NCBI RefSeq assembly: GCF_964204645.1 | Contig: NC_134028.1 | Location: 14,143,653-14,207,652 of the forward strand | From: Tubulanus polymorphus | Lineage: Eukaryota > Animalia > Nemertea | Direction of reading: 5' to 3' | Length of the DNA stretch: 64,000 bases | Shown: one piece after another, positions 10,711-37,078 of the stretch | Layout of the letters: the number at the start of each line of letters is the position of its first letter | How positions within the stretch are numbered: position 1 is the stretch's first letter | Notes under the pieces: model-generated | Database searches by the model: none | Seen by the model: only the letters and a program-made list of their open reading frames with translations | What the model was told of the DNA's origin: nothing | Made by a program: the position numbers and the translations under genes

Positions 10711-10827
10711 AATTAATTGTTATTTGATTTAATCATTTAAAAGTTTAATATTTGTAAAATGATTATAATATATTTAATTAAAAACTAGCAAATATTTTAT
10801 AAACTGTTTAATTTTTCTCTTAAATAA

Positions 10828-10971
10828 ATGGATGGTTTCATCCCAACTGGGAAAAGTGATTTGAAACATTATTTAGTTGCTGGAGGTTTAATATTGGCAG
10901 CATTATATTTTTACTATGAGAATATTTCAAAAGATTTGATGAATGAAAATAATAAATTGAGAAAAAATTAA
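10828..10971 (+). CDS. Small membrane-anchored protein (47 aa; may extend to ~11045 via frameshift)
   Basis: Manual translation MDGFIPTGKSDLKHYLVAGGLILAALYFYYENISK...; start lies in TAAATAAATG after a T-run, like the Polinton genes. Confidence 0.5.
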   Translation: MDGFIPTGKSDLKHYLVAGGLILAALYFYYENISKDLMNENNKLRKN

Positions 10972-12864: not shown

Positions 12865-13840
12865 GATGGGTTTCGTCGTCAGACGAACCCATCTATGGCA
12901 TCGTCGACATGTCTGTCTGTATGTCTGTCTGTCTGTCTGTCCGTCTGTGGATGTTTCTTTATGACACGATTTAAGCTGTTTGTGTGGACCGACAATTCTG
13001 TAATTTCACACAGGTATTCTCTACTTGATGTAGATGGTGCAGCTTGGTTTATATTTGATTCCGATGGTTATAAGTGCTCTAATTTGGTTAAAAGATAATT
13101 AACGTTACTCGCTAGTTCAAGCCGCTGTACAGCGCGTTGCTACGACGACGCTCGATCAACATACTGGTACTCGCTGTGTAATACTGAACACGTATATACC
13201 TGTAGATATTGATCGTACTAGCACCGGTTTTAGATAGCGCGCGCGCTGATCGGTCTTAACACTTTTCGGAACTGCTGTGCTAAATGCTGAGAGGCCGAAT
13301 CTATGCGCAATCATTTATTGGGCTCGTCACATTTGATAGTGAATGGATAAATAACCGGTGTCAATGACGGTCGCTACTCCCCATCAGTATAACTCATCAG
13401 TATAAGAAATAATTCTTTCGAGTTTTTTTTTCAATCCCCGAAGTTGTTGTTACGATATTGACCTCGCCGTTTTATAAGCTTACCGATGATTCTTCTAGTA
13501 TTTTCAGGGTCACAAGACATGACGAAGTCGCCAAGTTTTGTACAAATTTCACGAAACAAACAATTATTTAGGCGGCACCTGATCTATTGATTAATTATAA
13601 TAAATAATGTTTATTTCATTAAAAATTTGTTTTATTCAAACACTACTTTCATCGCACATAGCGTGATCGGTAGGCCCTACTATTCTACGGTAGGCCATGG
13701 ACTCTTTCATGTGGTAGGCCTATTACAAATGATACAATCCGCGTGTCCGTGAATAAGTGACACGTGGTGGGCCGGGTTGTGAGGAGCATCGAAACTAATC
13801 CGTCACAAATAATAGATAGAAAACAATACCTTAAGAGGTT

Positions 13841-13930
13841 AGTAATTGGAATATCAGGGGTTCAGATCAGAGGACGAGAGGACGAGACACCACTCATCAC
13901 CACAAGTAATTTTTTCCCCTAATAAATGGG
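13841..13930 (+). repeat. Left TIR of Polinton A (contains the pPolB start codon at 13926)
   Basis: Reverse complement of 30275-30364. Confidence 0.97.
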
Positions 13931-16900
13931 GGAGAATGAACACCATCTAGAAAACAATAATGTCAATAAAAATCAATATTATTGTCAATATTGTAAAAAA
14001 TACATCGATACATCTAATAAAACACGACATGAAAAAACTGCAAATCATATAAAAAATGTAATAGATTTTGAAACTCCAGAAAATTCCAATGAATGAAAAG
14101 AAAGATTAGAAAATATGAATGTGGATGAAATAAAATGTGAAGTTTGTAACGAATTTATAGTAAAAAGGAATTATAATAGACATCTCGAATCACAAAAACA
14201 CCACCAAAATTTGAGTAATAATGTTTTAGGAAAAGATTATTTTGATAATAAACCTCAACAAGTAAAAGAATCAACTTCAAAAACAAAATCTATTTCAAAT
14301 AAACCTTACATGGAAAATGTTAGAAATTATATTGATTCACTAGAAATAAAAGATACAATTGAAATTTTAGAAACATTACATAGTAAAATTGGTCCTGCAG
14401 CTATTATATTTAGATTTTTTAAAGGTACAACAATAGAAGATTATAGTAAATTTAATGAAATAATAGAAAAAATACTAGATTTGATAACAGATGTTGAATA
14501 TCCAAAAATTAGTATCTCTGGGAAAGTAAGTTTTATAAAGTCAGAAGAAAAAATGGATTATAATATTCAAACACTCTCTGAAGAAATAATTTCAAAAACA
14601 CAAATAAAAGAGAAGTTAGAAAAATATTAAATGAATTTAAACGTCATATTGAAGAAAGATATTTTGAGGGTTCTGGTTTAACATTGAATGAAATTATATA
14701 TTTAGATTTAAATGTTTATAATACAAAAAGAAATAAAACATCAAAAAGTAATAAAATGTTTAAAAATAATTCAAACTTTATAATAGAAAAAGATATGAAA
14801 GCATCAAGTTATATTAAATTACCATTTTTATCAAAAGCAATTATAAATGTTAAAAATGAAGACAACAAATGTTTTCTGTGGGCAATTATTAGTTGCTTAC
14901 ATCCATCACAGGAAAATGTTTGTAGAATAACAGATTATCGGAAATATGAAACATTATATAAAATTGATCAATATCCAGTAACTATAAAAATGATTCCTAA
15001 AATGGAAAAAGTTAATAATTTAAAAATAAATGTATTCGAATTAATGCAATTACCAAAGACAAAAGGTGAAAATATTAAAGATTATACATTGGAAGCTTTA
15101 TATTTAACAGAATATTATGATGATGAAAATGCTATAGATTTGTTATATTATAAAAAAGATGAAAATGAACATTATATGTGGTTAAAACAAATTGATTTAT
15201 TCTTTAGAACAGAAAGTGATCATCATAATAAAATTTATCTATGTAGAAAATGTTTATCCAAATTTATGACTGAGAATACATTATTAAAACATAAAGAATT
15301 ATGTGATAATAAAGATTTTTGTAAATTAATAATGCCAACAGAAAAAGATTATAAATTGAAATTTACTAATCATAAATTTAAAAATATTGTTCCATTTGTA
15401 ATTTATGGGGATTTTGAATCATTGAATAAAGAATTAACTGATCAAGATAGAAAAGAAATATATAACAAAAAGCAATTATTAAAATCAATGGATAAAGGAA
15501 GTGAATTAAATGAAGACATAATACAAGCAAGACCTACCAATTATAAATACAATTAAAAAAGTTCATCAAAGAGCTGCTGCTTATGGAATTTATATAAAAT
15601 CAAATTATCCCGAATTATATGAAAGTCAATATATTTCTTTTAGAGGTGAAAATGTAGTTAATGATTTTTGTGATAAAATTATTGAATTAGAAAGTGATTT
15701 TACAAAATTATTAAACAAAAATAAAAGAATAGTTATGACAAAAGAAGATGAAATTGATTTTAATTATGCAACTCATTGTTGTTATTGTGAAAAACGTTTT
15801 TATTCATTTGATAAAAGAGTTAGAGATCATGATCATTTAAATTCAAAATATCGTGGAGCTGCTCATGAAGATTGCAATTTACAAGCTAAAAAAGTAAATT
15901 TCGTACCAATATTATTTCATAATTTATCAGGTTATGATACCCATCTATTTATAAAACAATTATCGGGAAAATTGGGCGCAATTAATCAAGAAATAGAAGA
16001 ATATAATGCTATAAATGAAGCAAATGTAAGAAAATATGATTTTAAACTATTAGCTAAAACATCTGAAAATTATATTTCATTTCAATTTGGTTGCATTAGA
16101 TTTTTAGATTCTTATAGATTTCTAGCAAGTTCATTAGATAATTTATCAAAATCATTAGTTGATAATGATTTTGTTATAACTCGATATTATTATCCAAATG
16201 ACCAAGATTTTAAATTATTGAGATATAAAGGCGCAATTCCTTATTCATTTTATAAAACACACGATGATTTCAAAGAAACGAAATTATTGAAAGATCAATT
16301 TTATGATAAATTAAAAGAGGAGTATGTGAAAGACGAAGTTTTTGATAGAACATTAAATATTTGGAACCATTTTAAGATGAAAAATCATGGTGAATTAGTT
16401 GATTTATATTTAAAATCAGATGTTATGATATTGGCTGACATATTTGAAAAATTTAGAGAAGTTAATTTGAATCATTTTAATGTTGATCCTTGTTATTGCT
16501 ACTCTAGTCCTGGTTTAACCTGGCAATGTGGTTTAAAATATACAAATGTAGAATTAGATTTATTAAAAGAACCAGATATGGTTTTATTATTTGAAAAATC
16601 AATTAGAGGTGGAATTAGTGGTGTTATGGGAGATAGGTATTTTAAAGCAAATGATGAATATAAATTATTATATATTGACGCCAATAATTTATATGGTTGG
16701 GCAATGATGCAACCTCAACCATATAAAAATTTTATATTAACAGAAGTTGAAAATGATGATAAAACTAATTGGGAAAGCGCAATTATGAGTTTAGAAGATG
16801 AAGCACCAATTGGTTATTTCTTTGTAGTTGATTTAGAATATCCTGAAAATATAAAGTTTAAAACAAGAAACTTACCTTATTGCCCAGAACATTTAACTGT

Positions 16901-18986
16901 AGATGATAGTTATTTAAGTGAATACCAGAAGAAAATAAAACCGAAAGATCATGTTTTTACAGAAAAATTAATACTTACTCAAAATAATAAATACAATTAT
17001 ATTGTTCATTATAGAATGTTAAAATTTTATCTAAAACAAGGAATGAAATTAAAGAAAGTACATAAATATATTGAATTTAATCAATCAAAGTGGTTAGAAA
17101 AATATATAGATTTCAATACTCAACAGAGAACAATATCAAAAACAGATTTTGAGAAGGATTTTTTTAAATTAATGAATAATAGTTTTTATGGAAAAACATG
17201 TGAAAATATTAGAAATAGAAATGATATTGAATTAGTGAATAATTATGAAAGATTAAGGCATTTACAATCAAGTCCTAGACATTTAGGAAATAAAAGGTTT
17301 GAAGATTATTTAACCGCAGTAAAATTAAAAAGAACATCCATGAAATTTAATAAACCTATATTTATAGGTTCAACCGTTTTAGAAGTTTCAAAATTACTAA
17401 TGTATAATTTTCATTATAATGTTTTGCAACCACTTTTTTGGGAAAAACAAATTCTATACTTCGATTCTGTAACAGCTGACACCCCAATATTATTAAAATG
17501 TAATAATAAAATATTGGTAAGAAGAATTTCAGAAATAATTCCAAAACAAAATGAATGTTATATTTCATATGGTGAAAGAGAATTAATACAAATAAATGGA
17601 TTAATGGATGTTTGGACAAGAAATGGATGGAAAAAATTAAATAATATTATTAGACATAAAACAAATAAGAAAATCTATAGAGTTAGAACTAAATTAGGAT
17701 TTGTAGATGTTACAGAAGATCATAGTTTAATTAAACAAAATGGTGATGAAATAAAACCAACTGATATAAAAATTGGAGATGAATTATTACATAAAAGATT
17801 TTACCCAAGAATGAATCATATGTCATTTGATGAAATAATTGATAATATTTATAATATAGAACCCGAAACATTGGAAGAAAAAGAATATTTTATCAAAGGA
17901 TTTTTCATGGGTGATGGTTCAGCAGGTGTGTATAATTATGTTAGTGGAACTAAATATTGTTGGTATTTATGCAATCAAGACTTAAAATTATTAGAAAGAA
18001 TTAAGAAATTCTGTGAAGAAGTTTATCCAAATAAAACATTCAAAATCATAGATGTTATGAAATCATCAGCAGTTTATAGAATACTTGTAAATAATCCTAA
18101 AGATTTTGCTATAGAGTATAATGATGAATTCTATATTCATGCAATAGTGAAAAGTAATACTTCGACAAAAGAAAAGATAGTTCCAGATTATGTATTAAAT
18201 GCAAAAAATAATTTAAGAAAATGGTTCTTCATTGGGTTCTATGCCGCACATGGCACTAAAAAATTTACAAAGGATAAAAAGATAACCTTTGCACAGAAAG
18301 GAAAAGTTGCTATATCAGGATTGAATATATTATGTAATTCATTAGGCTTCAATATGAATATTGGGTTGATTAAATCTAAACCAAATTGTTTTAATTTAAG
18401 GCATGTAGAAAAAGATTTAACTGAAGAAGTTAAAGATTTATTTGAAATATATAACCCAACTGACTATGTTTATGATTTATCAACAGATGATGGAACATTC
18501 AATTCTGGGTTCCCATTAATCCAAAAAAATACTGACGCCTACATACTAAAAATCAAGACAAATGACATAACAAAAGACTTAAAAACATTAAAACCTCATT
18601 TTGATTTTAGCAATTATCCTAAAGATCATGAACTATTTAGCAATGATAATAAAAAGATTCCTGGTAAGTTTAAAGATGAATTAGGAGGTGATGAAATGAT
18701 TGAATTTGTTGGGATAAGAAGTAAAATGTATAGTTACAGAACAAAAGATCATGAAGCTAAAAAGTTAAAAGGAATAACAAAACATGTGGTTGATAAACAT
18801 ATAGAATTTCAAGATTATATAAAGTGTTTATATAAATCAATTGTAATGAAACACAAAATGAATTGTTTAAGATCAGAAGATCATGAGATGTACATTAATG
18901 AAGTTGAAAAAACTAGTTTAAATCCATTTGATGATAAAAGGCATATTTTAGATGATGGTATAAAAACATTACCTTATGGCCATTAA
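13926..18986 (+). pseudogene. polB: Protein-primed family B DNA polymerase of element A, with intein (stop at 14094, frameshifts ~14630 and ~15540)
   Basis: YGDFES (Exo I), RDHDH...AHEDCN, FHNLSGYD (Exo II), YLKSD (Exo III), DANNLYG (motif A), KLMNNSFYGK (motif B), YFD|TD (motif C split by intein), KMY, KLKG. Confidence 0.95.
17466..18530 (+). other. Intein (355 aa) with LAGLIDADG homing endonuclease, in pPolB motif C
   Basis: Block A SVTADTPILL, block B VTEDHSL, LAGLIDADG helices FIKGFFMGDGS and FFIGFYAAHGT, block F VYDLSTDDGTF, C-terminal KN followed by +1 Thr. Removing it restores YFDTDA, matching the empty site YFDTDS at 51163-51180. Confidence 0.95.
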
Positions 18987-19345
18987 AACATAAAATCAAT
19001 ATCATCATACTCGAAATCACTATTGGCTTCTTCATTTTCATTTAATTGTTCAGGTTCTTCTTCCATTCCATTTTTCTCATTTAAATAAAGTTCTATCTTG
19101 TTCCACATTTCATCTCGCTCTCTTTGTTTCTTTTTGTTTGTTAATTCATCAAATGGAATTATAATATCTAGGTTTAAATAATTTACAATCTTATTTAAAA
19201 AGAATTCATAATTTATTGAATCTGTTATTCTATTTTCCAAATAATACATTAATATTTGTTTGAATATTTTTTTTATATTTTTCATATCTTCTTCTGTTAA
19301 TTTAGGTTTTTCATAATAATCGTTAAATAATAAATATAAATACAT
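18983..19345 (-). CDS. Hypothetical protein with acidic C-terminus (possibly frameshifted tail of 19297-20286)
   Basis: ORF track; overlaps the upstream minus-strand ORF. Confidence 0.45.
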   Translation of the reverse strand: MYLYLLFNDYYEKPKLTEEDMKNIKKIFKQILMYYLENRITDSINYEFFLNKIVNYLNLDIIIPFDELTNKKKQRERDEMWNKIELYLNEKNGMEEEPEQLNENEEANSDFEYDDIDFMF

Positions 19346-20286
19346 TTTCTTTTGTTAAATGTTGGTGGAATAATTGTTTTTATAATATCTTTTTTAGTTA
19401 TTTCACCATTTTTATTTTCTATTATTTTCATTTTTTCAAGCCATTGCATATATTCTGGTGTATGATCTTCTATAGAAAATATTTTAAAAATTTCATCAAG
19501 ATAATTTAATTTTGAATCTATGAGAAAATTTCTAGTTTTTTCTTCACCCCATAAATTCTTTTGCCATCCACAATCAACACAAAATAACACAGTACCTTCT
19601 TGGGTTAAGGTCGCATAACTACATTGTGGGCATTTTTGTTTATAATTTATTGGTAATAGATCTTCATTAAGCTCTTGGTATTTTCTTACGTTTTCTTTAT
19701 GTTTTATTGTTCTATTATGTAGATTTGAATTACTTGTTGTAATAATCAATTTACAATATTTACAATAATATGTTTTTCTTGTTAATTCATTATATTGTTT
19801 TTCTAACTTTTCAACTGTTTCTTCATTATCTGGTAACGTTTTCTCATATTTTATTTTTTCTAATAAATTATTTTTTCTTTCATTGAATTCAGTTTCAAAT
19901 TTATTAGAAATTTTATCTATATGTGCTTTACGAAATTGATGATTCTCCCAATCTTCTATATTTTCAGGACAAAATCTTATTCGACAATGCTCACATAAAT
20001 TATTCTTTACATTATTCTTGTCATAAAATAAAAAAGGTCTTTTCCAAATAGGTTCAACTTCAACAGAATTATTATTACTTTCGTTACTACCAACATTAAT
20101 TATTAAGTCTTTAATTCTACACTTCTCTGAATGTTTTTTAACATAATTTCTTGAGAATAATTTATTACATTTTGGGCAGTTTATTTTAGGGGGTTTATAA
20201 TTTTCATCATGTTTTTTCATATGTCGAGCCTTATTACTTTTTCTTAGAAGTTCACCACAAATTTCACATGCTATCTTCTCTTCCAT
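19297..20286 (-). CDS. Multi-zinc-finger protein (C2H2-type)
   Basis: Repeated CxxC...HxxxH motifs (CEIC...HMKKH, CPKC...H, CKYC...HNRTIKH). Start in TAAATG. Confidence 0.8.
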   Translation of the reverse strand: MEEKIACEICGELLRKSNKARHMKKHDENYKPPKINCPKCNKLFSRNYVKKHSEKCRIKDLIINVGSNESNNNSVEVEPIWKRPFLFYDKNNVKNNLCEHCRIRFCPENIEDWENHQFRKAHIDKISNKFETEFNERKNNLLEKIKYEKTLPDNEETVEKLEKQYNELTRKTYYCKYCKLIITTSNSNLHNRTIKHKENVRKYQELNEDLLPINYKQKCPQCSYATLTQEGTVLFCVDCGWQKNLWGEEKTRNFLIDSKLNYLDEIFKIFSIEDHTPEYMQWLEKMKIIENKNGEITKKDIIKTIIPPTFNKRKCIYIYYLTIIMKNLN

Positions 20287-20355
20287 TTATTTAGAAAAAA
20301 ATTTTATTAAAATTAATTTTTAGTGATGAGCGGTAATTTTTTTATGTTATAAATA

Positions 20356-21114
20356 ATGGTAGAATTAAAAGAATACAGAATATTTGTTGATTCTAGAAGG
20401 CTTACAAATTATAAATCACATAATTTACTAGTACAATTAGATAGAGAATTTAAGAATTGTGTAGATTTAAAATTAGTAAATATAAGTTTATGTAATTCTT
20501 TTTATAATATATCGGATAAAACTTTCGAACATAGAGGTTTTGCAATTCATATGAAAAATAAAAATAAATGGTTTTATCTAATGTTAAAACCAGGGTTATA
20601 TAATTTAGAAACATTAGCCCAAGAAATTAATCGGAGAGCACGATTAAAACTTGGAAGTGAATATAAATTTTCAATTAGATTTATAAAAAGTGATAGTTCT
20701 GATAAAATTAAAATAAAGTTAGATGATGAAAGCAAACATGCATTTATGGTAAGGAAACCTTTAGCTAAACTGTTAGGAATTAAACCACAAATTGTTACAG
20801 GAAACGTAGACGGTAATTCAAATATAATACCTTTTACACATTTTTATATTTATTGCAATTTAATCGATCCTACAAAAACATTTGAAGCAACTAAAGATAC
20901 AACATGTAATTCTGGTTTACTAAACATTTTACCATTGAAGAATGTTAAACAATTTGGAACGCAAATAAATTATAATTTAACAGAATGTGATTTTAAACCT
21001 TGCATTCCTCATTTTAATAATTTTAGATTAGAAATAAGAAATCATAATGGATACTTAATTGATTTGAATAACTTTCCTGTAATTTATGAATTAGTTATAA
21101 GATGTAAAGAGTAA
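20356..21114 (+). CDS. Minor capsid protein (penton, single jelly-roll)
   Basis: IFVDSR N-terminus and FYIYCNLIDP...FRLEIRNHNGYLIDLNNFPVIYELVIR C-terminus are typical of Polinton/virophage pentons (by recall). Confidence 0.75.
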   Translation: MVELKEYRIFVDSRRLTNYKSHNLLVQLDREFKNCVDLKLVNISLCNSFYNISDKTFEHRGFAIHMKNKNKWFYLMLKPGLYNLETLAQEINRRARLKLGSEYKFSIRFIKSDSSDKIKIKLDDESKHAFMVRKPLAKLLGIKPQIVTGNVDGNSNIIPFTHFYIYCNLIDPTKTFEATKDTTCNSGLLNILPLKNVKQFGTQINYNLTECDFKPCIPHFNNFRLEIRNHNGYLIDLNNFPVIYELVIRCKE

Positions 21115-21130
21115 TTTTTCACCTTTATAA

Positions 21131-21472
21131 ATGAATATAACTGTTGGACCGAGTATATGTTTTGGGTTTGATTTTAAACATGGTAAAGAAATGAGAATTA
21201 AACTAAATGATGTAATTACTGATATAAAAAGTAAATCATTTAACAATGCATCAATGATTGATAAAGAAAAGTATAATATAGAAAAAGTAATTGATTTAAT
21301 TAAATCACCTTTAGAATATTATGAATTAAATAAAGATGGAATTATAGATGATATCAAAAACATATTATCCAAAATATATGATAATCATAAAACTAGTAAT
21401 GAAATAAATGTTGAAATAATCATAAATAAGTTAACTAAATATTTTGAAGATAGTAATTTTTTTGATAAATAA
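21131..21472 (+). CDS. Hypothetical Polinton protein
   Basis: Conserved in the copy at 52873-53237; TAAATG start. Confidence 0.75.
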   Translation: MNITVGPSICFGFDFKHGKEMRIKLNDVITDIKSKSFNNASMIDKEKYNIEKVIDLIKSPLEYYELNKDGIIDDIKNILSKIYDNHKTSNEINVEIIINKLTKYFEDSNFFDK

Positions 21473-21694
21473 ATGAGTGATAATAAGTGGATAATAACTG
21501 GATTATATAATGGCGCATTACTATCAGTTGGAACTGTTGGTTATTCAATGGTATTAAAAAAAGTATTCAAAATGGGAAGTGTTAATGTTGATAGATTTGA
21601 TATAAATGATATTTTAAAGTTAACATTAGCAGTTACTTTATCTAATTTAACTATTGATTATTTGGAAAAACAAAAATATATTCCTCCCATATAA
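21473..21694 (+). CDS. Small hydrophobic/membrane protein
   Basis: Near-identical copy at 53238-53459; two hydrophobic stretches. Confidence 0.75.
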   Translation: MSDNKWIITGLYNGALLSVGTVGYSMVLKKVFKMGSVNVDRFDINDILKLTLAVTLSNLTIDYLEKQKYIPPI

Positions 21695-21719
21695 ATGCAT
21701 AATTTTTTTTGCTAAATAA

Positions 21720-22142
21720 ATGGCTTCTGCAATTATAACTATTATAGGATCGGCAATTGTTAACGCTTTAGCATTTACTGGTGGTGGTTATTTATTTAAA
21801 CATATTGATAAAAATAGTTCATTAGGAGAACAAAGAAGACATAACTTAGCGTTAGAGAAATACAATAAAGCTGCAGAAGAATATAGAGAAAAGAGACAAA
21901 ACTATATGGATTACATCAATAAAGAATTATATGATCAGAAGATTTCACATAGAGATTTTCAATCAGTTGATGATGCAATGAGTTTATATAACGCGGTAAC
22001 CAATAAAGAAAAATTACAACTATACAAACCCAAATTATCAGATTATTATACCCCAAGTAAAGAACAACAGAAATATGAAATAATTTGGATTTTAGGTGGA
22101 ACAGTTATTGTTATATTTGTTGCTTATAAGTTTACTAATTAG
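21720..22142 (+). CDS. Membrane protein (N- and C-terminal hydrophobic segments)
   Basis: Copy at 53484-53906; IWILGGTVIVIFVAY C-terminal anchor. Confidence 0.78.
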   Translation: MASAIITIIGSAIVNALAFTGGGYLFKHIDKNSSLGEQRRHNLALEKYNKAAEEYREKRQNYMDYINKELYDQKISHRDFQSVDDAMSLYNAVTNKEKLQLYKPKLSDYYTPSKEQQKYEIIWILGGTVIVIFVAYKFTN

Positions 22143-22161
22143 TAATTTTTATTCTAAATAA

Positions 22162-22596
22162 ATGGAAGATAAAGTTGATAGTATTGATATTATTCCTCAT
22201 GATATAAATAAAACTAAATTAAAAACATATTTAGAAAAACAAATATTAGAATTTGAAAGTGACTTGGAGATAAAAAAGAAAAAATATTTAAAAAGTAAAA
22301 TTATATATTATTTGATTATAAGTGGTTCGGTTACAATTAGTTCTGTAATAACATTTCTAGCAATATTCAGTCCATTAACACCTTTAGCTATATCAATTGG
22401 TGTGTTAGGATTAAGTTCAAGTGTTTTAACTGGTATAAGTTCAAAATTAAATATAAAAAGTAATAAAGAAAAAATTAAAACTAATATAAAAGAAATAAAT
22501 AAATTAAAGAACACACTAGATTATATAATAAGTTTAAATGGTCATATAACAGTTGAAGAACAAGATAAATTATTAAAAGAATTAATAAATTATTAA
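22162..22596 (+). CDS. Two-TM coiled-coil membrane protein
   Basis: Central hydrophobic hairpin; copy at 53926-54351. Confidence 0.78.
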   Translation: MEDKVDSIDIIPHDINKTKLKTYLEKQILEFESDLEIKKKKYLKSKIIYYLIISGSVTISSVITFLAIFSPLTPLAISIGVLGLSSSVLTGISSKLNIKSNKEKIKTNIKEINKLKNTLDYIISLNGHITVEEQDKLLKELINY

Positions 22597-22612
22597 TTTT
22601 TTAATTATATAA

Positions 22613-24019
22613 ATGGCAGATAGTTTTCCAAAAGCTTTCCAATATAATAAATCAATTAAATATAATATTCCAGCAATAGATTTTAATAAAGATATTACAT
22701 ATAGAAATGAAGTTTTAGATTCATTAACTAATTTAGAAATTTATATTACTGAAACTAATAATTTTAATGCAAAGATGGAAAATATATTTCATGTATATTT
22801 AATTAATTTTAAAAAATTAAAAGATGAAAAACAATGGTTATTAAAATCTAATATGAAGTATTGGCAGAATCAATTAAATTTTGCTGTTTATTGTGCAACA
22901 ACAGGATGTGGAATAAGTTGGAATGATCATTTGAATAATTCTAAATATAAACTAATTCAAAGTTTATTTAGATTTCATACATACTTTCAAATCAGAATAA
23001 TATTAAATGAATTAGAGTGCGCTTTACCAGGATCTAGATATTTTAAAGAATTAGATAATAATATTAATTTATCAAAGTTTTATAAAATTTGCAATGAATT
23101 TAATATAGATATAAATAATTCTGATTTTAGAACAAAAATTGGAACAATAAGATCACTTCCTTGCCCTAAAAAGATATATTGTAAAAGGTATATTGCAGAA
23201 TATTGTGCACTTCCCATACCATCTAATAGTTTTTATAATATCTATAATAATAAATTAGGTTATGGTAAAATAGAAACAAAGGATTTAGAAACATTAAATT
23301 TCAATAAATTACCAAAATTTTATGATAATTTAAAACAAGAAAACAATAATGGTTGGGTTTATTTTATTTTAGAAAATAGTGAAGGTTTTACAAAATCAGG
23401 TATAGAAAGAATTAATCAATCTATTAGAACTTATTTGATTTGTATTCTAGGATCACAAGTTGAAACAAGATCACCGATAATTGGAAATTTGAATACATCA
23501 TTCGATACACAAAAACAGTTTAAAGTTTTATTTGAAGATTCCATTCATAATGATAAAAATAGATCGATTCCAGAAAACATTATAAGATATCAAAATTATT
23601 TAGATAAATCTCATGTAAGACTTAATTATTGTATAGGCCCTAATCTATTAATTATTTCTAATGATTTAGTATTAAAGATGGGAAATATAATTGGTTATAA
23701 TAATCTAATTAAAACTGCAACAATAAATAATTCATTTGGATTAAATGATATAAATAAAAAGATTATTACTGCTCCAAAATTAATGGAAGGTGAAAAAAAT
23801 AAAAAACACATTCAATCAACAGAAACTAAAACTAAGAATATTAAATTAAATAATGATTCTAAAATAAAAGATTACAATACTACAGAAAATAATAGAACTG
23901 ATATTATTCAACATGATATAATTAAACTAAATGATGATAATAAATCCCATGAAAATACTAAATTAGCTATAACTTGTATAGGAATTGTAATCGGAGGAAT
24001 ATTATATTTTAAATTTTAA
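22613..24019 (+). CDS. 468-aa uncharacterized protein with C-terminal membrane anchor (candidate virion surface protein)
   Basis: Intact ORF ending LAITCIGIVIGGILYFKF; copy at 54368-55757. Confidence 0.8.
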   Translation: MADSFPKAFQYNKSIKYNIPAIDFNKDITYRNEVLDSLTNLEIYITETNNFNAKMENIFHVYLINFKKLKDEKQWLLKSNMKYWQNQLNFAVYCATTGCGISWNDHLNNSKYKLIQSLFRFHTYFQIRIILNELECALPGSRYFKELDNNINLSKFYKICNEFNIDINNSDFRTKIGTIRSLPCPKKIYCKRYIAEYCALPIPSNSFYNIYNNKLGYGKIETKDLETLNFNKLPKFYDNLKQENNNGWVYFILENSEGFTKSGIERINQSIRTYLICILGSQVETRSPIIGNLNTSFDTQKQFKVLFEDSIHNDKNRSIPENIIRYQNYLDKSHVRLNYCIGPNLLIISNDLVLKMGNIIGYNNLIKTATINNSFGLNDINKKIITAPKLMEGEKNKKHIQSTETKTKNIKLNNDSKIKDYNTTENNRTDIIQHDIIKLNDDNKSHENTKLAITCIGIVIGGILYFKF

Positions 24020-24035
24020 TTTTTTTATTATATAA

Positions 24036-25463
24036 ATGGATGTAGAAGGTGTAGAAGATATTGGAATGGATCCTTTTGATGAACCTAACATAACTGATGA
24101 ACAACCACCTGATTTTGATGAAACAAGTTTTAATGATGGTAATGAACCAGAATATAACAATAATTTAAATATGCCTGAAAAATGCTGAATCACAATTAAA
24201 TCCTGAAAATTTAGACCCAGATTTAGTAAAACAAGATTTAGATAATTTAAACAAAATACCTAAATTAGAAGATTTAATTGAAAAATCTAATTTTAACATA
24301 AATGATGAAGACGTTGGACTTTTAGCAGATCAATTAAAATTTTTAGATAATGGTAAATGTTATTATCGTTTGAAAGGTGATTATTATATTGATATCACTT
24401 ATAAAAATAATAAAAATAAAATATTATCAGAATCAACTTTAGAAAAATTAAAACCAGATAGAATTAAAATAATAAGTAATAGTAATGAAATAACTGATGT
24501 TACACAAAAAGAAATAGATGATAATAGAGATGTATTTAAACAAAGAATTAATGAATTATTTGAAATAATCAAAAAGAAATCAGAAACAGAAACAACTTCT
24601 GAACAGAATATAACTTCCAAAAATAGTAAACTTAGATCAAATAAAGTTCCAATTGAAAAACTTTTACCGAATGGATTACTTGATGCAACAGATCAAGAAT
24701 TAGAAGATTTAGATATATTTTCTGATAAAGCAATTAGAGAAATTATTAGTATAAGACTTGCATCTGATAAAATTGCACATAATAAAAGTATAAGAGATTT
24801 TAAAATTAGAACTTTAGAAAAAGAATTAACTGATAAAAATAAAGAAATAGAACAATTAAAGTCTGATTTAGATCATCAAGTAATTGATGAAATAGAATAT
24901 AGACAAAAAGAATTACGTTTAGAAAAAGAAAAAGATGATTTAGAATATAACATAGAATTACAAAAAGAAGAAATTAAATTATTGTTAAAATCATATGATT
25001 ATAATATTAATAGATTAAAAGTTATTTTTATAGATTTGTTGATTAAACCAAATTCTGAAATATCATTAAAAGACAGGATGAAGTTATTATTTAAATTAGA
25101 AGGAATAACAATTCTTTCAATTCTAACAGCTGTAACTATGTTATTTACAACAATTGGTTTAGCAATATCAAATGCTTTGAAATCTACTCCTACTCCCACT
25201 CCTAATAAACCAGATAAACCTCCAAGCAATAATTCTATACAAGATAAAGTTAAAGATGGTTTAAAGAAATTAGCAAAATATTTATGGAACTATCTAAAAA
25301 ATCTGCTGCAGCATTACCAGGAGTTATTGCTTCAATTGTTGGTTTTATATTGAAATCTGCAGGTAATATTCTTAACTTTGCTGCTGAACATATTATTTTA
25401 TTTTTAATCACAGTTGTAAGTGCTATTATTTTTGGGTTAGTAAATATGATTAAAAATAAATAA
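24036..25463 (+). pseudogene. Acidic/coiled-coil protein with C-terminal TM segments (two frameshifts)
   Basis: ATG in TAAATG at 24036; central ORF 24370-25353; homolog at 55774-57202. Confidence 0.75.
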
Positions 25464-25483
25464 TTAATTTTTTTGTTAAATAA

Positions 25484-26731
25484 ATGAGTGGGAGTTATAT
25501 AAGTCCTTCTAAGATTTCTAGAATATCTAATGCTATTAAAGCAGAAAGATCACATCATATAATTACTCATAACCCTTCAAATATTAATCCCGATGAAACT
25601 TTATACGTTAGAATCCCTCGATTAACACAAAATAGTTTTTATGTTCCAAACAGTATTTATTTATCAGCTGATATAAAAGTAATCGGTAATAATAATAATT
25701 ATGTTGTTGATAATGTTGGAAGATATTTGATTAAAAAGTTAACAATAAAGATTGGTCCAGAAACAGTTTTCTCATTAGATGATTATAATTTATTTATGCA
25801 CTATAAAGATTTATGGTTAACTAAAGAAAATAGAAATAATATGATATTTCAAGGAATTCAATCAGAAAACCAAAATAAATTAAGATCTGAAGCCAATAAC
25901 GCAATAGTAAATAATGACGTAGATAATTTGATTAAAAAGATTTATGGAAGCAAATATAAAATTCCATTAGACTTTGAATTGATAAATAATAATGCACCTT
26001 TATATAAATACGCAATTCAAGAAGATATTATATTTGAGATAACATTTGCTCCTGTAAATGAAATTGTATTATCTAGCGTTGTTAAAGATATGAGTTATAA
26101 ATTATCGAATATATGTTTAGAATATGATACAGTAACTGATGAAAATATTTCAAGTATAATTCAAACTCAATACAATCAAGGATTTTCATTATTATATGAT
26201 TATATTGATAAATTTAAAACTGTAACTATTAATGCAAATGATGAAATAATTAATGAGAATATTAACTTTCCTAGAAGATCTATTAAAGGTATATTAATAT
26301 TTTTTACTATTGGAACGTATACTAATGGCGCAATAAATGTTGATAATTATTATAATCCTGAAATAACAAAAGTAGAAATAACTATCGAAGGTATAGCGAA
26401 TAAAATATTTTGTCAAGGAATGAGAATGATTGATCAATGGGTAGAAATTAAAAAACATTTTATGAATGAAAAAGTAAAATCATTTGAAAATTGTAACATT
26501 AATCAAATTGATTATTATACCGGTAATAAATTTGCATTATGGGTAGATTTTAGAACAACTGAAGATAATTCATTACATGGTTCTGGGAAAAAATTACAAA
26601 ATACAAAAGATGGAATACAATTATTTATGAAAAAGAAAAAGGGAATGAAAAATTTTAAAATGCATATTTATATTATATCTGACGCACAATTAAATATTGT
26701 AAATTCTCAATTAGATAGTATTCAATATTAG
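25484..26731 (+). CDS. Major capsid protein (putative double jelly-roll)
   Basis: 415 aa, beta-rich, with typical Polinton MCP-like segments (IKKLTIKIG, YKIPLDF, LSNICLEYD, MHIYIISDA) and a position next to integrase/ATPase. Fold inferred, not computed. Confidence 0.75.
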   Translation: MSGSYISPSKISRISNAIKAERSHHIITHNPSNINPDETLYVRIPRLTQNSFYVPNSIYLSADIKVIGNNNNYVVDNVGRYLIKKLTIKIGPETVFSLDDYNLFMHYKDLWLTKENRNNMIFQGIQSENQNKLRSEANNAIVNNDVDNLIKKIYGSKYKIPLDFELINNNAPLYKYAIQEDIIFEITFAPVNEIVLSSVVKDMSYKLSNICLEYDTVTDENISSIIQTQYNQGFSLLYDYIDKFKTVTINANDEIINENINFPRRSIKGILIFFTIGTYTNGAINVDNYYNPEITKVEITIEGIANKIFCQGMRMIDQWVEIKKHFMNEKVKSFENCNINQIDYYTGNKFALWVDFRTTEDNSLHGSGKKLQNTKDGIQLFMKKKKGMKNFKMHIYIISDAQLNIVNSQLDSIQY

Positions 26732-26761
26732 AAATATAAAGTTAAAATTAAGGATATATAA

Positions 26762-27888
26762 ATGAGTGGTAAAAAACTCCTAATACTAAAGAACAATATT
26801 TAAGAAATTTATATTACAACCCTGAGAGTTCGGTTGCTTATTCTTCTACTAAAAATATATGGCGTAAAGTAAAACAAGATAAATTAGATAAGATAATCCC
26901 ACAAAATTTAGTTAAATATAAAGATATAAATGAATTTATGTTAGAACAACCAACATATACAACACATAAAAAAATTGTTAGAAAATATAAAACTCGTAAA
27001 ACTATGGTAAGTTATGTAGATCAACAGTGGCAAGGAGATTTAATTGATATGAAAAATCTTAAAAAAGATAATAATGATTATTGGTGGATATTGAATATAA
27101 TTGATATTTTTAGTCGTTATGTATGGAGCTTCCCACTTTATAGAAAAGATGCTGCACAAACATCACATGTTTTAAGAAAATTTCTTTCAGGTGGTAAACT
27201 AAAACCAGAAAAAATTCAATTTGATGATGGAAAAGAATTTGATAATTCATTAGTTCATGAACTTTTAGATTTTCATAATATTAAATATTTTTCGACAAAA
27301 TCGGATAAAAAAGCAGCAGTTGTTGAACGATTTAATAGAACATTGAGAACAAGAATGTCAAAATATTTCACAGCAAATAATACTTATAAATGGATTGATG
27401 TTTTACCAAAATTTATAGAAGGATATAATAATTCTTATCATTCTTCTATTGGAATGAAACCTATTGATGCTAGAAAACCTGAAAATGCTGAAATTGTTTG
27501 GAATAATTTATATGGAGCATTTCTTGTTGATGATTTTGGTGAACCTAAATTTAAAGTTGGTCAAAATGTTAGAATTTCTAAGTATAAAAAGATATTTGAC
27601 AAAGGATACGATCGAAATTTTACTAGAGAAATATATAAAATAAAAAAGGTAATAACAACAAAACCATATGTCTATAAATTAGAAGATTTAGATGGTGAAG
27701 AAGTTGATGGCTACTTTTACGAAGAAGAATTAAGTTTAACTACTGAAAATCTAGAACAAGAATATAAAATTGAAAAAGTACTAAAAACAAAAACTGTTAA
27801 AAGAAAAAAATATTCTTTAGTAAAATGGGTTGGATGGCCAGATAAATTTAATGAATGGATATTATCAAGTAAAATTAAAAATATATAA
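26762..27888 (+). CDS. Retroviral-type (RVE) integrase with C-terminal chromodomain (5' frameshift; main ORF 26938-27888)
   Basis: WQGDLID...IDIFSRY...QFDDGKEF...VERFNRTL DDE core; YKIEKVL...VKWVGWPDKFNEWI chromodomain. Confidence 0.93.
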
Positions 27889-28497
27889 ATGAATAAGGAA
27901 TTATTCATATTTGAACCTCATAATATGTTAATTTCTGGTGTAACAAATTGTGGAAAAACTTATTTTATATTAAATTTATTAGAAACTGTTTACAAAAACT
28001 ATTTTGATAATATAGTATTATTTTGTCCAACATATGAATTTAATCAAACTTATGATAGAAACATTACTAGAAATAATAAATTTATTATATTAGATCCTAA
28101 AACAGTAAAAGAAAATTTAGATAATTGTATAAAAATAGCAATTGATATTTATAAAGGATCAAATACATTATTTATCATAGATGATTGTGCTAATCTACAT
28201 GATTCAAAAGTTAGAGAAAGTGAGTTATGTTATTTAGCTTTTTCTGGCAGACATTTTGGGATAACAACTTGGGTTTTAAATCAAAAATATAATTCAATTG
28301 TTAAAGACTTTAGAGAAAACATTAGATTTCTAGTTTTATTCTACAATAAAGATAGAAAATCGATGAAAAATGCACTTGAGGAAAATGATATTATTCCACA
28401 TGATTTACATAATGAATATATGGATAAGTTGAAAAATATTAAAAGATCAAAATTACTATTTAGATTACAACACCCATTTAAATATGAATTTATTTAA
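27889..28497 (+). CDS. A32-like (FtsK/HerA) genome packaging ATPase
   Basis: Walker A GVTNCGKT, Walker B FIIDD, GRH motif, Q...RxN. Confidence 0.92.
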   Translation: MNKELFIFEPHNMLISGVTNCGKTYFILNLLETVYKNYFDNIVLFCPTYEFNQTYDRNITRNNKFIILDPKTVKENLDNCIKIAIDIYKGSNTLFIIDDCANLHDSKVRESELCYLAFSGRHFGITTWVLNQKYNSIVKDFRENIRFLVLFYNKDRKSMKNALEENDIIPHDLHNEYMDKLKNIKRSKLLFRLQHPFKYEFI

Positions 28498-28499
28498 AT

Positions 28500-28870
28500 T
28501 CAATTAGTTTGTTAATCTAGTTGAATTCTAGTTATTGGTAGTTGTAACAAAAATCAAATAGATTTAACAATATTTTAACTAGCTTGTTAATCTAGTTTAA
28601 TTCTAGTTACATTCTAGTTGAATTCTAGTTGTTAGTAGTTGAAACAAAAATCAACTAGAATGTAACTAGAAATAAACAAAAACAACAATATTTCAACTAG
28701 CTTGTTAATCTAGTTGAATTCTAGTTACATTCTAGTTGAATTCTAGTTGTTAGTAGTTGAAACAAAAATCAACTAGATTTAACAAGAAATAAACAAAAAC
28801 ACTAATATTTCAACTAGCTTGTTAATCTAGTTGAATTCTAGTTACATTCTAGTTAAATTCTAGTTGCAAC
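28500..28870. repeat. Non-coding repeat array (~118-bp units of CTAGTT/GAATTC subrepeats)
   Basis: AACTAGCTTGTTAATCTAGTT recurs at ~28577, ~28695 and ~28812. Confidence 0.85.
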
Positions 28871-28899
28871 ATCACACAATTAATTTTTTTGTTATATAA

Positions 28900-29454
28900 A
28901 TGGTAGGTGAAAAGAAAATAAAATCTAAAAATGGTGATGTTCCAATTGAAAAAACTTTAGATGATTTAGGAATAACAGAAACAAAATTAACTCCAGATGA
29001 TGGTGCTTTAAATAATGTTACAACAAATAATAATTATGAATATTATCTTTATTGTAAACATCAATTAGAAATATTAATAGCATCTGGAAAATGTAAAAAT
29101 TTTGTTGGTAAAAATTTAACTTATAATGAATTAGATACAATGAAATCAGATGAAATTATTAGATTATTTAAGATTTATGAAGCCGCGAGAACAGCTAGAA
29201 TTAATGATGCGATATCAGAAAATGTAGTAAAAGGTTATAGTAAATTATGTAATTATATACTACCAATTGAAGATGAAAATAGATTATATTCCGATTTAAA
29301 AAATGATTATTTAGTTACGACAGAATTAAATAAATGGATTGGATATTTATCATTTCAATTAGGTGGATTTATGACATTATTATCAACTGGGGTTATAACA
29401 TTTTCAAATATTGAAAGTAAAAATATTTCTATAATAAATGAGCGAGGTGGATGA
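28900..29454 (+). CDS. Conserved hypothetical Polinton protein (C-terminal hydrophobic segment)
   Basis: Homologs at 36170-36740 and 60899-61500. Confidence 0.8.
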   Translation: MVGEKKIKSKNGDVPIEKTLDDLGITETKLTPDDGALNNVTTNNNYEYYLYCKHQLEILIASGKCKNFVGKNLTYNELDTMKSDEIIRLFKIYEAARTARINDAISENVVKGYSKLCNYILPIEDENRLYSDLKNDYLVTTELNKWIGYLSFQLGGFMTLLSTGVITFSNIESKNISIINERGG

Positions 29455-29791
29455 AGTGAAGAAAAAACCGAGATCACAGAAACAAATTGAATGGTCTCGG
29501 CAATTAGGAATTAAATCACAAGAATATAAAAAAGCTGTAAAAGAAAAAATAAGTAATAAAAATGTTAATAAAAATAGTGAAAATGTTGTTATTTCTAATC
29601 CTTCTAATGATAGAATATTTGATAAATATTTATATTTTACAGTTGGATTTGTAATTGTATTCATTTTGATTGGGTGTAATTGGTATAAGAAATCAAATAA
29701 AATTCATGGTATTAGTAATTCTGAACCAACTGCTATCAAAAATGAAAGTACTTCTGAAATTCCAAAATTGATAATAAAAAAAATGGATTAA
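29438..29791 (+). CDS. Small single-TM protein with basic N-terminus (KKKPRSQKQI)
   Basis: Homolog at 36737-37072. Confidence 0.78.
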   Translation: MSEVDEVKKKPRSQKQIEWSRQLGIKSQEYKKAVKEKISNKNVNKNSENVVISNPSNDRIFDKYLYFTVGFVIVFILIGCNWYKKSNKIHGISNSEPTAIKNESTSEIPKLIIKKMD

Positions 29792-29851
29792 TATTTTAGA
29801 AAAAAAGCAAAAAAAAATAATTTTTTTAATTAATTAAATATTAATTGAATA

Positions 29852-29914
29852 TCTAACTACTTTTGTCTATCTATGAGGAGCAATTAAATTGTCCAGATAA
29901 GTCATTTCGGATTC
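29852..29914 (-). other. Conserved ~65-nt structured non-coding element (copy 1)
   Basis: Also at 35797-35862 (+) and 61733-61799 (-); hairpin with compensatory changes. Confidence 0.6.
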
Positions 29915-29952
29915 TAGATATTCATTATTTTTATTAATCTATTTTTTTAAAT

Positions 29953-30279
29953 TTAATCAACAATTTCTAAATCATGATGGCCATCTTCATTTTTCCCATG
30001 ATATATTATTTTAAATCCTACTAAATCTTTCAATTCCTCCATACTCAATGAAACCCATTTATCGGGTAAAAACACTTTAAATTCTCGCGATGTACTAACA
30101 TTACAGTAGCTTAAATTAGCTGATACTTTCTCTCCATATTTAGTTTTTATCTTTTCTAATTTTAATATTTTATGTTCAATTTCTTTTGTAACATCAACTA
30201 ACTTTTTTATTTCAAATTGTTTTTTTGCTGGTTTTATTCTGTTATTTATTGTTGCTAAGAATGCTTTTCTATCTCCCAT
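29953..30279 (-). CDS. Conserved small protein (possible OB-fold/ssDNA-binding, inferred)
   Basis: Starts inside the right TIR. Homolog at 51729-52082 shares KYG...F(K/R)xxLPD...GKNExGHH. Confidence 0.7.
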   Translation of the reverse strand: MGDRKAFLATINNRIKPAKKQFEIKKLVDVTKEIEHKILKLEKIKTKYGEKVSANLSYCNVSTSREFKVFLPDKWVSLSMEELKDLVGFKIIYHGKNEDGHHDLEIVD

Positions 30280-30364
30280 TTATTAGGGAAAAAAATTACT
30301 TGTGGTGATGAGTGGTGTCTCGTCCTCTCGTCCTCTGATCTGAACCCCTGATATTCCAATTACT
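30275..30364 (-). repeat. Right TIR of Polinton A
   Basis: Reverse complement of 13841-13930, followed by TSD GAGGTT. Confidence 0.97.
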
Positions 30365-31097
30365 GAGGTTAACTTTTATAAACATCATTACCAAATCAAA
30401 ACCTGCACATCCTATCATAAATAGAAATTCTAAGAATTTATTTCAAAGAATAATAAATTACGTCTAAATATTGGGATTCGAACTCGTAGCATCGATTCAG
30501 GTGCCTTTCCCAAAGCGGGTATCCCGCGGGGAAAACCCATTACTATTTATATCGAGAATGGCCTTTTTGACAGCGAGTTCGGTGAATGAAACAGAAACAA
30601 TTACACAGAAACCCATCATGGAAAGTTTCTTTCTGGTTAAGTAGTTCATTAGATAATTTATCAAAATCATTAGTTGATAATGAATTAAGAATATTAAAGC
30701 AACATTACCCAAATAATGATGATTTTCAATTAATGAGATATAAAGGCGCAATTCCATATTCATTTTATAAATCGCATAATGATTTTAACATGACTGAATT
30801 ATTAAAAGAACAATTCTATGATGAATTAAAAAATGAATATGTTAAAGATGAAGTATATAATAGAAAATTGAATATTTGGAATCATTTTGGAATGAAAAAT
30901 CATGGACAATTAGTAGATTTATATTTAAAATCAGATGTATTATCATTAACTGATATATTTGAAAGGTTTAGAGATGTAAATCTAAAATATTTTAATATTG
31001 ATCCATGTCATTGTTATTCTAGTCCAGGAATAACTTGGGACTGTGGTTTAAAATTTACAGATATAAAAATGGATTTGTTAACAAATATAGATCAATT

Positions 31098-31306
31098 GAG
31101 GAGAGAATCCCACAATGATAATAAAAAGTCCGAAAATGAAACTTCGAGATTAGTAGTTTATTTCAACGTTTCGACTATATCCTAATAGTCATCTCCAGGA
31201 ATAATGACTACTATCTCGAAGTTTCATATTCGGACTTTTTATTATCATTGTGGGATTCTCTCCTCATCGCGTCAACACGGATATTGTGTTCTACCTATCG
31301 TGATAA
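31098..31306. mobile_element. Penelope-type pseudo-LTR fragment with ~60-bp inverted repeat and degenerate hammerhead
   Basis: 7-bp TSD ATCAATT (31091-31097 and 31307-31313). Minus strand CTGGAGATGACTATTAGGATATAGTCGAAACGTT. Confidence 0.65.
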
Positions 31307-35796: not shown

Positions 35797-35862
35797 GGAT
35801 CCGAAATGACTTATCTGGACAGTTATAGTTACCGCTCCTATAGATAGACAAAAGTAGTGAGA
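35797..35862 (+). other. Conserved structured non-coding element (copy 2)
   Basis: GGATCCGAAATGACTTATCTGGACAG...CTCCTATAGATAGACAAAAGTAGTGAGA. Confidence 0.6.
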
Positions 35863-37072: not shown

Positions 37073-37078
37073 AATTAG

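Follow-up and report, generated by a model that had tools for sequence, protein, structure and literature searches.

Small integrating viruses with promoters of the helper type are established among protists, both for virophages and for viruses of the Polinton-like kind (PLVs) (PMC6723459; PMC11998528; bioRxiv 2022.07.28.501842; bioRxiv 2025.10.09.676808). The described pairs comprise mavirus and EMALE04 with CroV, Sputnik with mimivirus, Gezel-14T with PgV, and Tetraselmis PLVs with TetV-2. Here we describe element A, a Polinton of 16,524 bp and 23% GC at positions 13841–30364 of a stretch of DNA of 64,000 nucleotides (hereafter, the window). A first-pass annotation of the window had claimed that almost every Polinton gene in it starts in a TAAATG motif resembling the poxvirus late promoter and had pointed to virophages that use the late promoter of their helper; that precedent is indeed in print, since the CroV late promoter precedes all genes of mavirus (PMC6723459). 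Our analysis demonstrated that the TAAATG start motif is a real, strong, and clade-specific feature, while the helper is hypothetical. A helper-type promoter in a small integrating virus is known; what appears to be new is that a Polinton, likely from an animal, has one with the geometry of vaccinia late promoters.

Element A resembles mavirus in being a small capsid-coding element with a protein-primed DNA polymerase B (pPolB) and an rve integrase, in the helper-type promoter on its genes, and in having integrated copies. The protist virophages and PLVs differ in their Imitervirales helpers and in their TCTA, AT-rich, or AAAATTGA motifs, whereas element A has a likely animal host, a poxvirus-like motif, a Polinton-type capsid, and a hypothetical helper. 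Among animal elements, the PLVs associated with entomopoxviruses have been proposed to be poxvirus hyperparasites (Barth et al., 2024, PMC11296320). These PLVs, set beside element A by their published description, have an adenovirus-type protease and are linked to their helper by co-purification and gene exchange (PMC11296320); no protease was seen in element A. A term search of the main text of that paper returned no “promoter,” “TAAAT,” “motif,” “VLTF,” or “intein.”

With Polintons/Mavericks, adintoviruses, and coral polintoviruses, element A shares pPolB, rve, the A32 ATPase, the double-jelly-roll capsid, terminal repeats, and a 6-bp duplication, and a subset of those groups has VLTF3, the poxvirus late transcription factor 3 (PMC8502044, PMC11131425, PMC10748475). 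It differs from Polintons and adintoviruses in that no adenain was found, the pPolB contains an intein, and a poxvirus-like promoter is present gene by gene. The word “promoter” occurs 0 times in the accessible text of the same three papers and is also absent from that of bioRxiv 2024.03.23.586382. No report of a poxvirus-type promoter in an animal Polinton was found in a literature search that left most subscription journals, Repbase, and supplements outside its scope.

TAAATG at the gene starts of element A

The sequence TAA|ATG was present at 14 of the 15 element A gene starts but at just 36 of the 631 remaining ATGs (Fisher p 6e-16). The two-part form TAA-W4/5...ATAA|ATG was likewise found at 14 of 15 starts, against 2 of the 631. 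The sole exception, the start at 20356, reads TAAATA|ATG, i.e., TAAAT is located three bases earlier; homologs of this gene at 52100 and in locus L011 begin with TAAATG. Three of the 15 starts (13926, 24036, and 26762) open broken genes and were assigned by homology. A mechanical count of the first ATG of every open reading frame (ORF) of at least 100 aa gave TAAATG in 10 of 16 cases; those lacking it are 20356 and ATGs located downstream of a break. All 24 positions at which the first-pass annotation had placed TAAATG over a start codon (14 in 13921–30285 and 10 in other copies) were confirmed. Its intergenic gaps of 0–30 nt held for 9 of 11 same-strand pairs; of the other two pairs, one is separated by a repeat gap of 402 nt and one overlaps by 17 nt.

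Such a motif might be a by-product of AT-rich DNA, stop–start coupling, or splice-leader acceptor sites. The upstream regions are 88% AT, the gaps are tiny, and the TAA at -19 coincides with the stop of the previous gene at three sites. However, 20,000 shuffles of each upstream 30-mer yielded on average 1.3 TAA|ATG and never more than 7, against the 14 observed, and only 2 of 14 element A starts and 1 of 52 starts of related loci have a TAA that ends the gene before, so that the enrichment exceeds both the AT-rich and the stop–start expectation. In a leave-one-out weight matrix, the 14 sites scored from 1.3 to 22.1, a lower limit reached by only 2 of 632 other element A ATGs. AG, counted as a check for trans-splice acceptors, was located within the last 9 nt at 3 of 65 starts versus 23 of 120 other sites. 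In addition, the motif stands in both terminal repeats, without any gene upstream.

Distribution of the motif among related loci

Relatives were collected by a capsid alignment search, and 80 of the 179 confirmed metagenome loci were used. Among the 49 loci with a readable capsid start, TAAATG was present in 13 of 14 with at least 50% capsid identity and in 2 of 35 below that value; in the former it was kept from 20% to 44% GC. When ORFs of at least 100 aa were considered, the 16 close loci had TAAATG at 52 of 65 starts and at 98 of 2,323 other ATGs, while the other 64 loci had it at 16 of 425 starts, including 4 of 40 in the 12 AT-rich loci among them. Within six homologous gene families, and after identical upstream sequences had been dropped (33, 31, and 127 rows beforehand), the motif clade had TAAATG at 29 of 32 starts, the intermediate lineages had it at 4 of 26, and the distant clade at 0 of 114. 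Four giant-virus bins, counted as controls together with three other records (23–43 kb read per bin), showed TAAATG at 7 of 45, 1 of 23, 4 of 28, and 6 of 25 ORF starts. The homologous-gene counts, the shuffles, and the pattern tests described below refute AT bias, stop–start coupling, and trans-splicing as the source of the motif, and we give this explanation almost no credence.

A quick tree was built from 61 capsids, with loci leaving fewer than 330 aa excluded. On this tree the window groups with 14 loci (Shimodaira–Hasegawa-like approximate likelihood-ratio support 99), and the motif is present in 14 of these 15 rows, which cover four sub-lineages. Five rows outside the clade scored positive: L075 (4 of 5 starts), L070 (2 of 3), L021, L022, and L049. 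The first two look real, and the last three rest on one ORF each. TAAATG starts were also seen outside the main clade in L079 (1 of 3); L070, L075, and L079 represent either independent gains or misplaced long branches. The topology suggests that the motif was, in essence, gained a single time and then retained across deep divergence.

Other lineages have other sequences close to the start codon. AAA|ATG was found at 0 of 60 starts in the motif clade versus 20 of 33 in AT-rich distant relatives. Because these AT-rich relatives use AAA|ATG and the motif clade never does, the T at -3 is selected, although it makes a poor translation context. In the sister loci L026 and L027, the ATG of 8 of 23 starts follows closely on a T/C-run plus TATA, at a distance of a few bases, and 14 of 34 ORFs of the AT-rich distant loci have TATA between -4 and -10. 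In four of the latter (L014, L016, L056, and L059), gene starts take the form TATA, A-run, ATG, possibly a third initiator variant. Close capsid relatives (54% identity, cluster P0046) are also filed under several Bartonella assemblies on contigs of 0.5–1.6 kb, which probably represent host DNA in those assemblies.

Anatomy of the motif and comparison with the vaccinia late promoter

The anatomy of the motif was determined from 80 distinct sites in the window and the motif-clade loci. Between -18 and -12, G and C hardly occur; A is the prevailing base at -18/-17, and T peaks at -13/-12 (79% and 90%). The positions -11 to -8 accept G/C, and -4 is A in 89% of sites. The layout is a core AA-W4-T (-18 to -12), followed by a spacer that tolerates GC and by WWA-TAAATG over the start codon. 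A T-run of at least four T occurs in 51 of the 80 sites and ends 5–8 nt before TAAAT in 46 of the 51. This corrects the earlier description of an AATTTTT(T) run about 10–15 nt upstream: the core has a fixed place at -18 to -12, and 29 of the 80 sites lack such a run. At about one third of the sites, the core is of an A-rich type. In the AT-rich subclade, core type tracks gene family (A-core at 6 of 6 ATPase genes and T-core at 6 of 6 capsid genes), and several A-cores overlap the coding ends of neighboring genes.

In the vaccinia late promoter, a T-containing core is located 5–7 bp before TAAAT(G/A) (PMC5294985). For the comparison, patterns were fixed in advance from Table 1 of PMC11423596, and TAAATG sites were compared only with one another; the counts for related loci cover 15 loci, L002 having been dropped as a near-copy of L001. 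The late pattern T-N9-TAAATG was found at 13 of 14 starts versus 12 of 36 other TAAATGs in element A, and at 40 of 51 starts versus 28 of 84 other TAAATGs in the related loci. The full group I pattern gave 6 of 14 versus 0 of 36 and 16 of 51 versus 2 of 84, respectively. Both parts of a poxvirus late promoter are therefore present, namely TAAAT(G/A) at the start and a T-rich core upstream with T at -13, and the likeness claimed by the first-pass annotation holds in sequence and register against the published patterns. The A-rich core was also considered as a vaccinia intermediate promoter (TAAAAA-N14-TAAA); this was rejected, as 0 of 14 and 0 of 51 starts fit.

Element A and the vaccinia/orthopoxvirus late promoters have in common TAAATG over the start, T at -13, the spacer length, and the back-to-back arrangement (PMC5294985, PMC11423596). 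Unlike vaccinia, element A, known here from sequence, is a 16.5-kb integrating element without RNA polymerase, and its motif is present on all genes, including that of the DNA polymerase. It also has a stricter AA at -18/-17 and an A-rich core variant unlike the intermediate pattern. A two-part AT-rich design near the start is also found in the late promoter of African swine fever virus (ASFV), with a T-rich element and a TATA initiator (PMC5294985, PMC7163114). The initiator of element A is TAAAT and that of ASFV is TATA; the L026/L027 motif resembles the ASFV design, which we treat as a lead only. The two-part design may be widespread in nucleocytoviruses, with the exact TAAATG as a poxvirus-like trait. 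In loci L008 and L023, divergent genes have TAAATG at both ends of gaps of 28–30 nt and share one core; bidirectional promoters are mentioned for poxviruses (PMC3185747).

The other poxvirus signal named by the first-pass annotation, the terminator TTTTTNT, was not supported. It was located at most 50 nt behind 6 of 15 stops, and in 4 of these 6 it was the promoter core of the next gene. Its depletion within genes, assessed with synonymous shuffles, was no stronger than that of other homopolymer runs and was also seen in lineages without the motif. Counts of AATAAA, splice donors, and TTTTTNT against such shuffles did not separate the lineages.

The same features bear on the explanation that the motif is a compact host-type signal, either a leaderless core promoter of RNA polymerase II (Pol II) or a translation-start context, with its poxvirus likeness due to convergence. 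Short AT-rich motifs converge easily, and TATAAA overlaps 26 of 65 starts. However, a canonical Pol II complex has an offset of about 24–30 nt, so a TATA that abuts a start codon is unable to serve it. T at -3 is the disfavored base for scanning translation initiation, and the AT-rich relatives do use AAA|ATG. Since the register also fits the vaccinia pattern, we consider a host-type signal improbable.

Along element A, the T-core motif of the pPolB start (13926) occupies 13907–13928 (+); there is no gene upstream, so its TAA elements are not stop codons. Further sites on the forward strand are located at 21112–21133 (start 21131; the upstream TAA doubles as the previous stop), 21454–21475 (start 21473; overlying the coding end of the gene before it), 21700–21722 (start 21720), 22143–22164 (start 22162), 22594–22615 (start 22613), 24017–24038 (start 24036), 25465–25486 (major capsid gene, 25484), and 28881–28902 (start 28900; behind a 118-bp tandem repeat). 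A-core sites, also on this strand, are those at 26743–26764 (inferred integrase start, 26762), 27870–27891 (ATPase, 27889; overprinted on the integrase coding end), and 29419–29440 (start 29438; inside the previous gene). The variant with a T-run and TAAATA|ATG is located at 20334–20358 (+), before the 252-aa gene at 20356. On the reverse strand, the motif occupies 20284–20305 at the start of the VLTF3-like gene (20286) and 30277–30298 (start 30279), inside the right terminal repeat.

VLTF3-like gene, intein, and other cargo

The zinc-finger plus VLTF3-like gene at 18983–20286 (-) is split into two frames, 19297–20286 and 18983–19345. The second piece matched PF04947 (E 1.9e-7, 31.4 bits, cut-off 25) over profile positions 83–164, and it answers to the C-terminal helical domain of VLTF3 (vaccinia A2). 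The match is limited to this piece, which continues the zinc-finger ORF in another frame. The CxxC..CxxC at the end of 19297–20286 gave a weak 4.6 bits, against only one of three giant-virus VLTF3s. A fold search with the VLTF3-like piece returned mimivirus-type proteins with 26–35% identity and entomopoxvirus proteins with 19–22%, at E 0.02 or weaker; its matches to VLTF3s had E values of 0.3 or weaker. With the VLTF3 profile, nothing convincing was found in the other copies in the window or in the 16 motif-clade loci, which are fragments; one of them, L011, ends within a zinc-finger gene homologous to the start of the 20286 gene. The promoter does not seem to need a VLTF3 of its own, as far as these fragmentary loci indicate. 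In the sister lineage, whose gene starts show a T/C-run and TATA(G), short VLTF3-like genes are located at L026:5082–5579, L027:6543–7052, and L028:4427–4936; the match is weak in L026/L027 (E 6e-4, below the cut-off).

The intein, of 355 aa and with a LAGLIDADG-like domain, is located at 17466–18530 (+) within the pPolB motif YFD/S...N/TD. Among the best 120 of 844 matches, its relatives were other pPolBs (41–63% identity), followed by RNA-primed PolBs of large DNA viruses, mostly at 35–42%, with named mimiviruses among them. Invasion of Polinton polymerases by inteins has already been suggested (PMC11161782). The same intein family is present in pPolBs of a different type (P0125); within the window, the intein stretch is mostly missing from the copy at 48015–51616 and present in that at 32117–34144. 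A deoxynucleoside kinase gene was found in two motif-clade loci (L005:2895–3377 and L011:10340–10981, both on the reverse strand). The motif clade thus carries predicted cargo of the large-DNA-virus type, comprising the PolB intein, the VLTF3-like gene, and the deoxynucleoside kinase.

Who reads the promoter

We propose that the motif is a poxvirus-type post-replicative promoter that would be read with transcription machinery supplied by a large DNA virus in the same cell, in the manner of mavirus, and put the probability of this reading at roughly 0.55. A single motif class is present on every class of genes, including the polymerase and the VLTF3-like gene, and no second (early) class was seen among the gene starts of element A and the motif clade. 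As none of the observed starts offers a second class from which an autonomous cascade could set out, a helper is favored. The promoter is also kept in a sister copy without a visible VLTF3-like gene. The first-pass annotation had assigned transcription to a co-infecting cytoplasmic large DNA virus. Dependence on a helper remains the best inference from the clade restriction, the shared promoter, and the cargo, but “cytoplasmic” and “poxvirus” are not established, given the mimivirus-like cargo. A helper from the poxvirus order itself is only a tentative suggestion.

Under the helper reading, element DNA would be free in a cell infected with a large DNA virus, and the late machinery of that virus would read the TAAAT initiators. 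By analogy with poxvirus biology, initiation would occur inside the AAA and produce a leaderless message with a 5' poly(A) head made by slippage; such a head would remove the unfavorable T at -3. Expression would take place only once the late factors of the helper are present, and integrated copies would thus be mostly silent. The pPolB would then copy the genome, the capsid module would package it, and the integrase would leave mostly silent nuclear copies. More weakly, the VLTF3-like gene may be captured cargo that tunes or competes for the late machinery of the helper rather than starting the cycle.

The main alternative is an autonomous element: host Pol II, guided by a factor from the element itself (the VLTF3-like protein or one of the conserved but unassigned proteins), could read a late promoter of the large-DNA-virus type inside the nucleus. 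The first-pass annotation had included neither the intein nor the VLTF3-like gene, and the latter makes this alternative a serious one. Element A encodes a VLTF3-like protein, as do L026–L028, which have a start motif of their own. VLTF3 is known in polintoviruses, including coral ones (PMC11131425, PMC8502044), and mriyaviruses, which are thought to be nuclear, retain it without an RNA polymerase (PMC11253617). The element integrates and consequently has a nuclear phase, and about seven of its conserved genes have no assigned function. However, the VLTF3-like gene and the polymerase gene are themselves behind the same motif, with no other class seen that might start a cascade, and the profile search described above gave no VLTF3-like sequence in the other copies or the fragmentary motif-clade loci. 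The unassigned genes are, moreover, common to lineages without the motif. We therefore regard autonomous transcription as possible but unlikely.

Several results weigh against the helper reading. The VLTF3-like piece is nearer to mimivirus-type than to poxvirus proteins, and the nearest named viral relatives of the intein are likewise of the mimivirus type, which speaks against a poxvirus helper. Because VLTF3 occurs in presumed nuclear nucleocytoviruses that lack an RNA polymerase, a TAAATG promoter need not imply a cytoplasmic polymerase. AATAAA is not avoided in coding sequence (60 in 12.5 kb, expected 58), but the same is true of lineages without the motif, and this test does not discriminate. 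The single origin on the tree, with L070 and L075 outside the clade, means that the loci are not independent. The other start-hugging motifs of the sister lineages could indicate a family-wide, self-read system.

Finally, no helper genome with a TAAATG promoter was found in a pattern scan of IMG/VR, the giant-virus bins, and the other records. The IMG/VR scan returned 120 loci, out of about 260 stretches, with one match each; no convincing run of motif genes was seen among them. None of the four bins is the helper, because TAAATG is present at few of their starts. In one of them, L210–L211 (G004), AAA|ATG was present at 18 of 22 starts and a T-run spaced as in element A at 16 of 22; the corresponding numbers for another, L214 (G001), were 11 of 24 and 8 of 24. 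Searches of IMG/VR returned no relatives of the capsid, the VLTF3-like piece, or the endonuclease gene of the copy described below. The kinase search returned one unrelated contig without the motif, and three capsid matches were located in prokaryote bins.

Structure and gene content of element A

Element A is flanked by the 6-bp target-site duplication GAGGTT (13835–13840 and 30365–30370) and bounded by terminal inverted repeats of 93 bp with a 98% match, at 13841–13933 (+) and 30272–30364 (-). The left repeat contains the promoter of the first gene and the right repeat that of the 30279 gene. The duplication, the repeats, and the size of 16.5 kb fit the Polinton norm (duplication of 5–8 bp, 13–25 kb), although 93 bp is slightly below the published repeat range of 100–1500 bp (PMC10748475). 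The empty-site joint 13834>30365 was present in one contig of one public run. From the same run, 15,285 contigs aligned to the 19-kb stretch compared, a number that gives no copy number but points to a repetitive family. A run that may be of RNA covered almost none of this DNA and thus speaks neither for nor against transcription.

Several genes of element A are broken by stops or frameshifts. The pPolB gene (13926–18986, +; PF03175, E 1.6e-18) is broken in its 5' part, and its start was assigned from a zinc-finger N-terminus as in the intact relative P0121. The 252-aa product of 20356–21114 (+) had no match in Pfam, NCBIfam, or PHROGs and is a candidate minor capsid protein. The gene at 22162 (+) encodes a protein with two membrane segments and a weak SLATT match below the cut-off, and the broken gene at 24036 (+) has an intact homolog in L011. 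The double-jelly-roll major capsid protein is encoded at 25484–26731 (+); its model had a predicted local distance difference test (pLDDT) score of 87, and the best Foldseek matches were the capsids of PBCV-1 and iridoviruses (E about 1e-17). It is followed by an rve integrase with a chromodomain (26762–27888, +; PF00665, E 1.3e-9), broken near the 5' end, and an A32-like packaging ATPase (27889–28497, +; PF04665, E 3.5e-13). The only long gap of the element holds the 118-bp tandem repeat (28566–28866; 2.6 copies), which is rich in TCTAGT/ACTAGA and partly palindromic and is a possible origin or regulatory region.

The pPolB, rve integrase, packaging ATPase, and double-jelly-roll capsid place element A among the Polintons/Mavericks. 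No protease family was found among 21 ORF pieces of element A and three further stretches, where a decayed or very divergent gene could escape detection. Element A would thus fall outside the adintoviruses, which are defined by an adenovirus-like maturation protease. Family scans of its proteins found no RNA polymerase subunit. Lavidaviridae do not accommodate it either, as no protease was found and the mavirus capsid ranks only 43rd among structural matches (TM 0.53, 9% identity); this model-based mismatch lowers the likelihood that element A is a virophage and leaves untouched the proposal that it works like one. The host is likely an animal, judging from a neighboring reverse transcriptase that groups among animal clusters and a named capsid relative with 38% identity from a bivalve.

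Other copies and small elements in the window

Two decayed related copies are present. That at 30586–38671 (+) comprises part of a pPolB gene, an endonuclease gene, an integrase, and an ATPase, with TAAATG starts at 34258, 36170, 36737, and 38156. The copy at 48015–64000 is 92% identical to element A over the structural block, with TAAATG starts at 52100, 52873, 53238, 53484, 53926, 54368, 55774, 57223, and 58148 (+) and at 59971, 60906, and 61500 (-); no VLTF3-like gene was found in the part of it that lies within the window. Genes of the Endonuclease VII/HNH type are located in these copies at 34258–35120 (with the motif at the start), 61854–62002 (-), and 63404–63967 (-).

A 4,301-bp element at 7088–11388 has inverted repeats of about 300 bp that open with AGTAAT, as in element A, and a TGCGTC duplication. 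It contains a 24-bp tandem array of 106 copies (8195–10703) and, in both repeats, an A-core motif (7320, +; 11150, -) that just three codons follow. At 10828, an ORF of 47 aa of the membrane type is preceded by a complete T-core motif. The element is likely a non-autonomous satellite of the element A family. A 410-bp miniature at 47347–47756 has the same terminal repeats and an internal palindrome, and no target duplication was seen. Pieces of host retroelements are located at 38830–40987 (GIY-YIG endonuclease and reverse transcriptase), which we take to be Penelope-like, and at 5623–6132 (integrase zinc finger of the long-terminal-repeat type).

Implications for animal Polintons

A long-standing question about animal Polintons is whether they live as autonomous viruses, as transposons, or as parasites of larger viruses; to our knowledge, almost none have been seen active. 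The presence of a clade-specific, near-universal promoter of vaccinia geometry makes their lifestyle directly testable. In a wider and rather doubtful extension, this animal Polinton clade would consist of virophages of poxviruses or of still undiscovered poxvirus relatives that infect invertebrates. TAAATG would pair with pox-like helpers, and the sister lineages with a T/C-run plus TATA and VLTF3-like genes of their own would pair with asfarvirus-like ones. The copies would be heritable and triggered by the helper, like mavirus in Cafeteria, and satellites such as that at 7088–11388 would share the promoter.

If the helper reading is true, the elements would be silent until a large DNA virus infects the cell, and a pox-like or other nucleocytovirus would remain to be discovered in the host group. 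The start motif, which differs even between close relatives that share their genes, may allow Polintons to be sorted by lifestyle from sequence alone.

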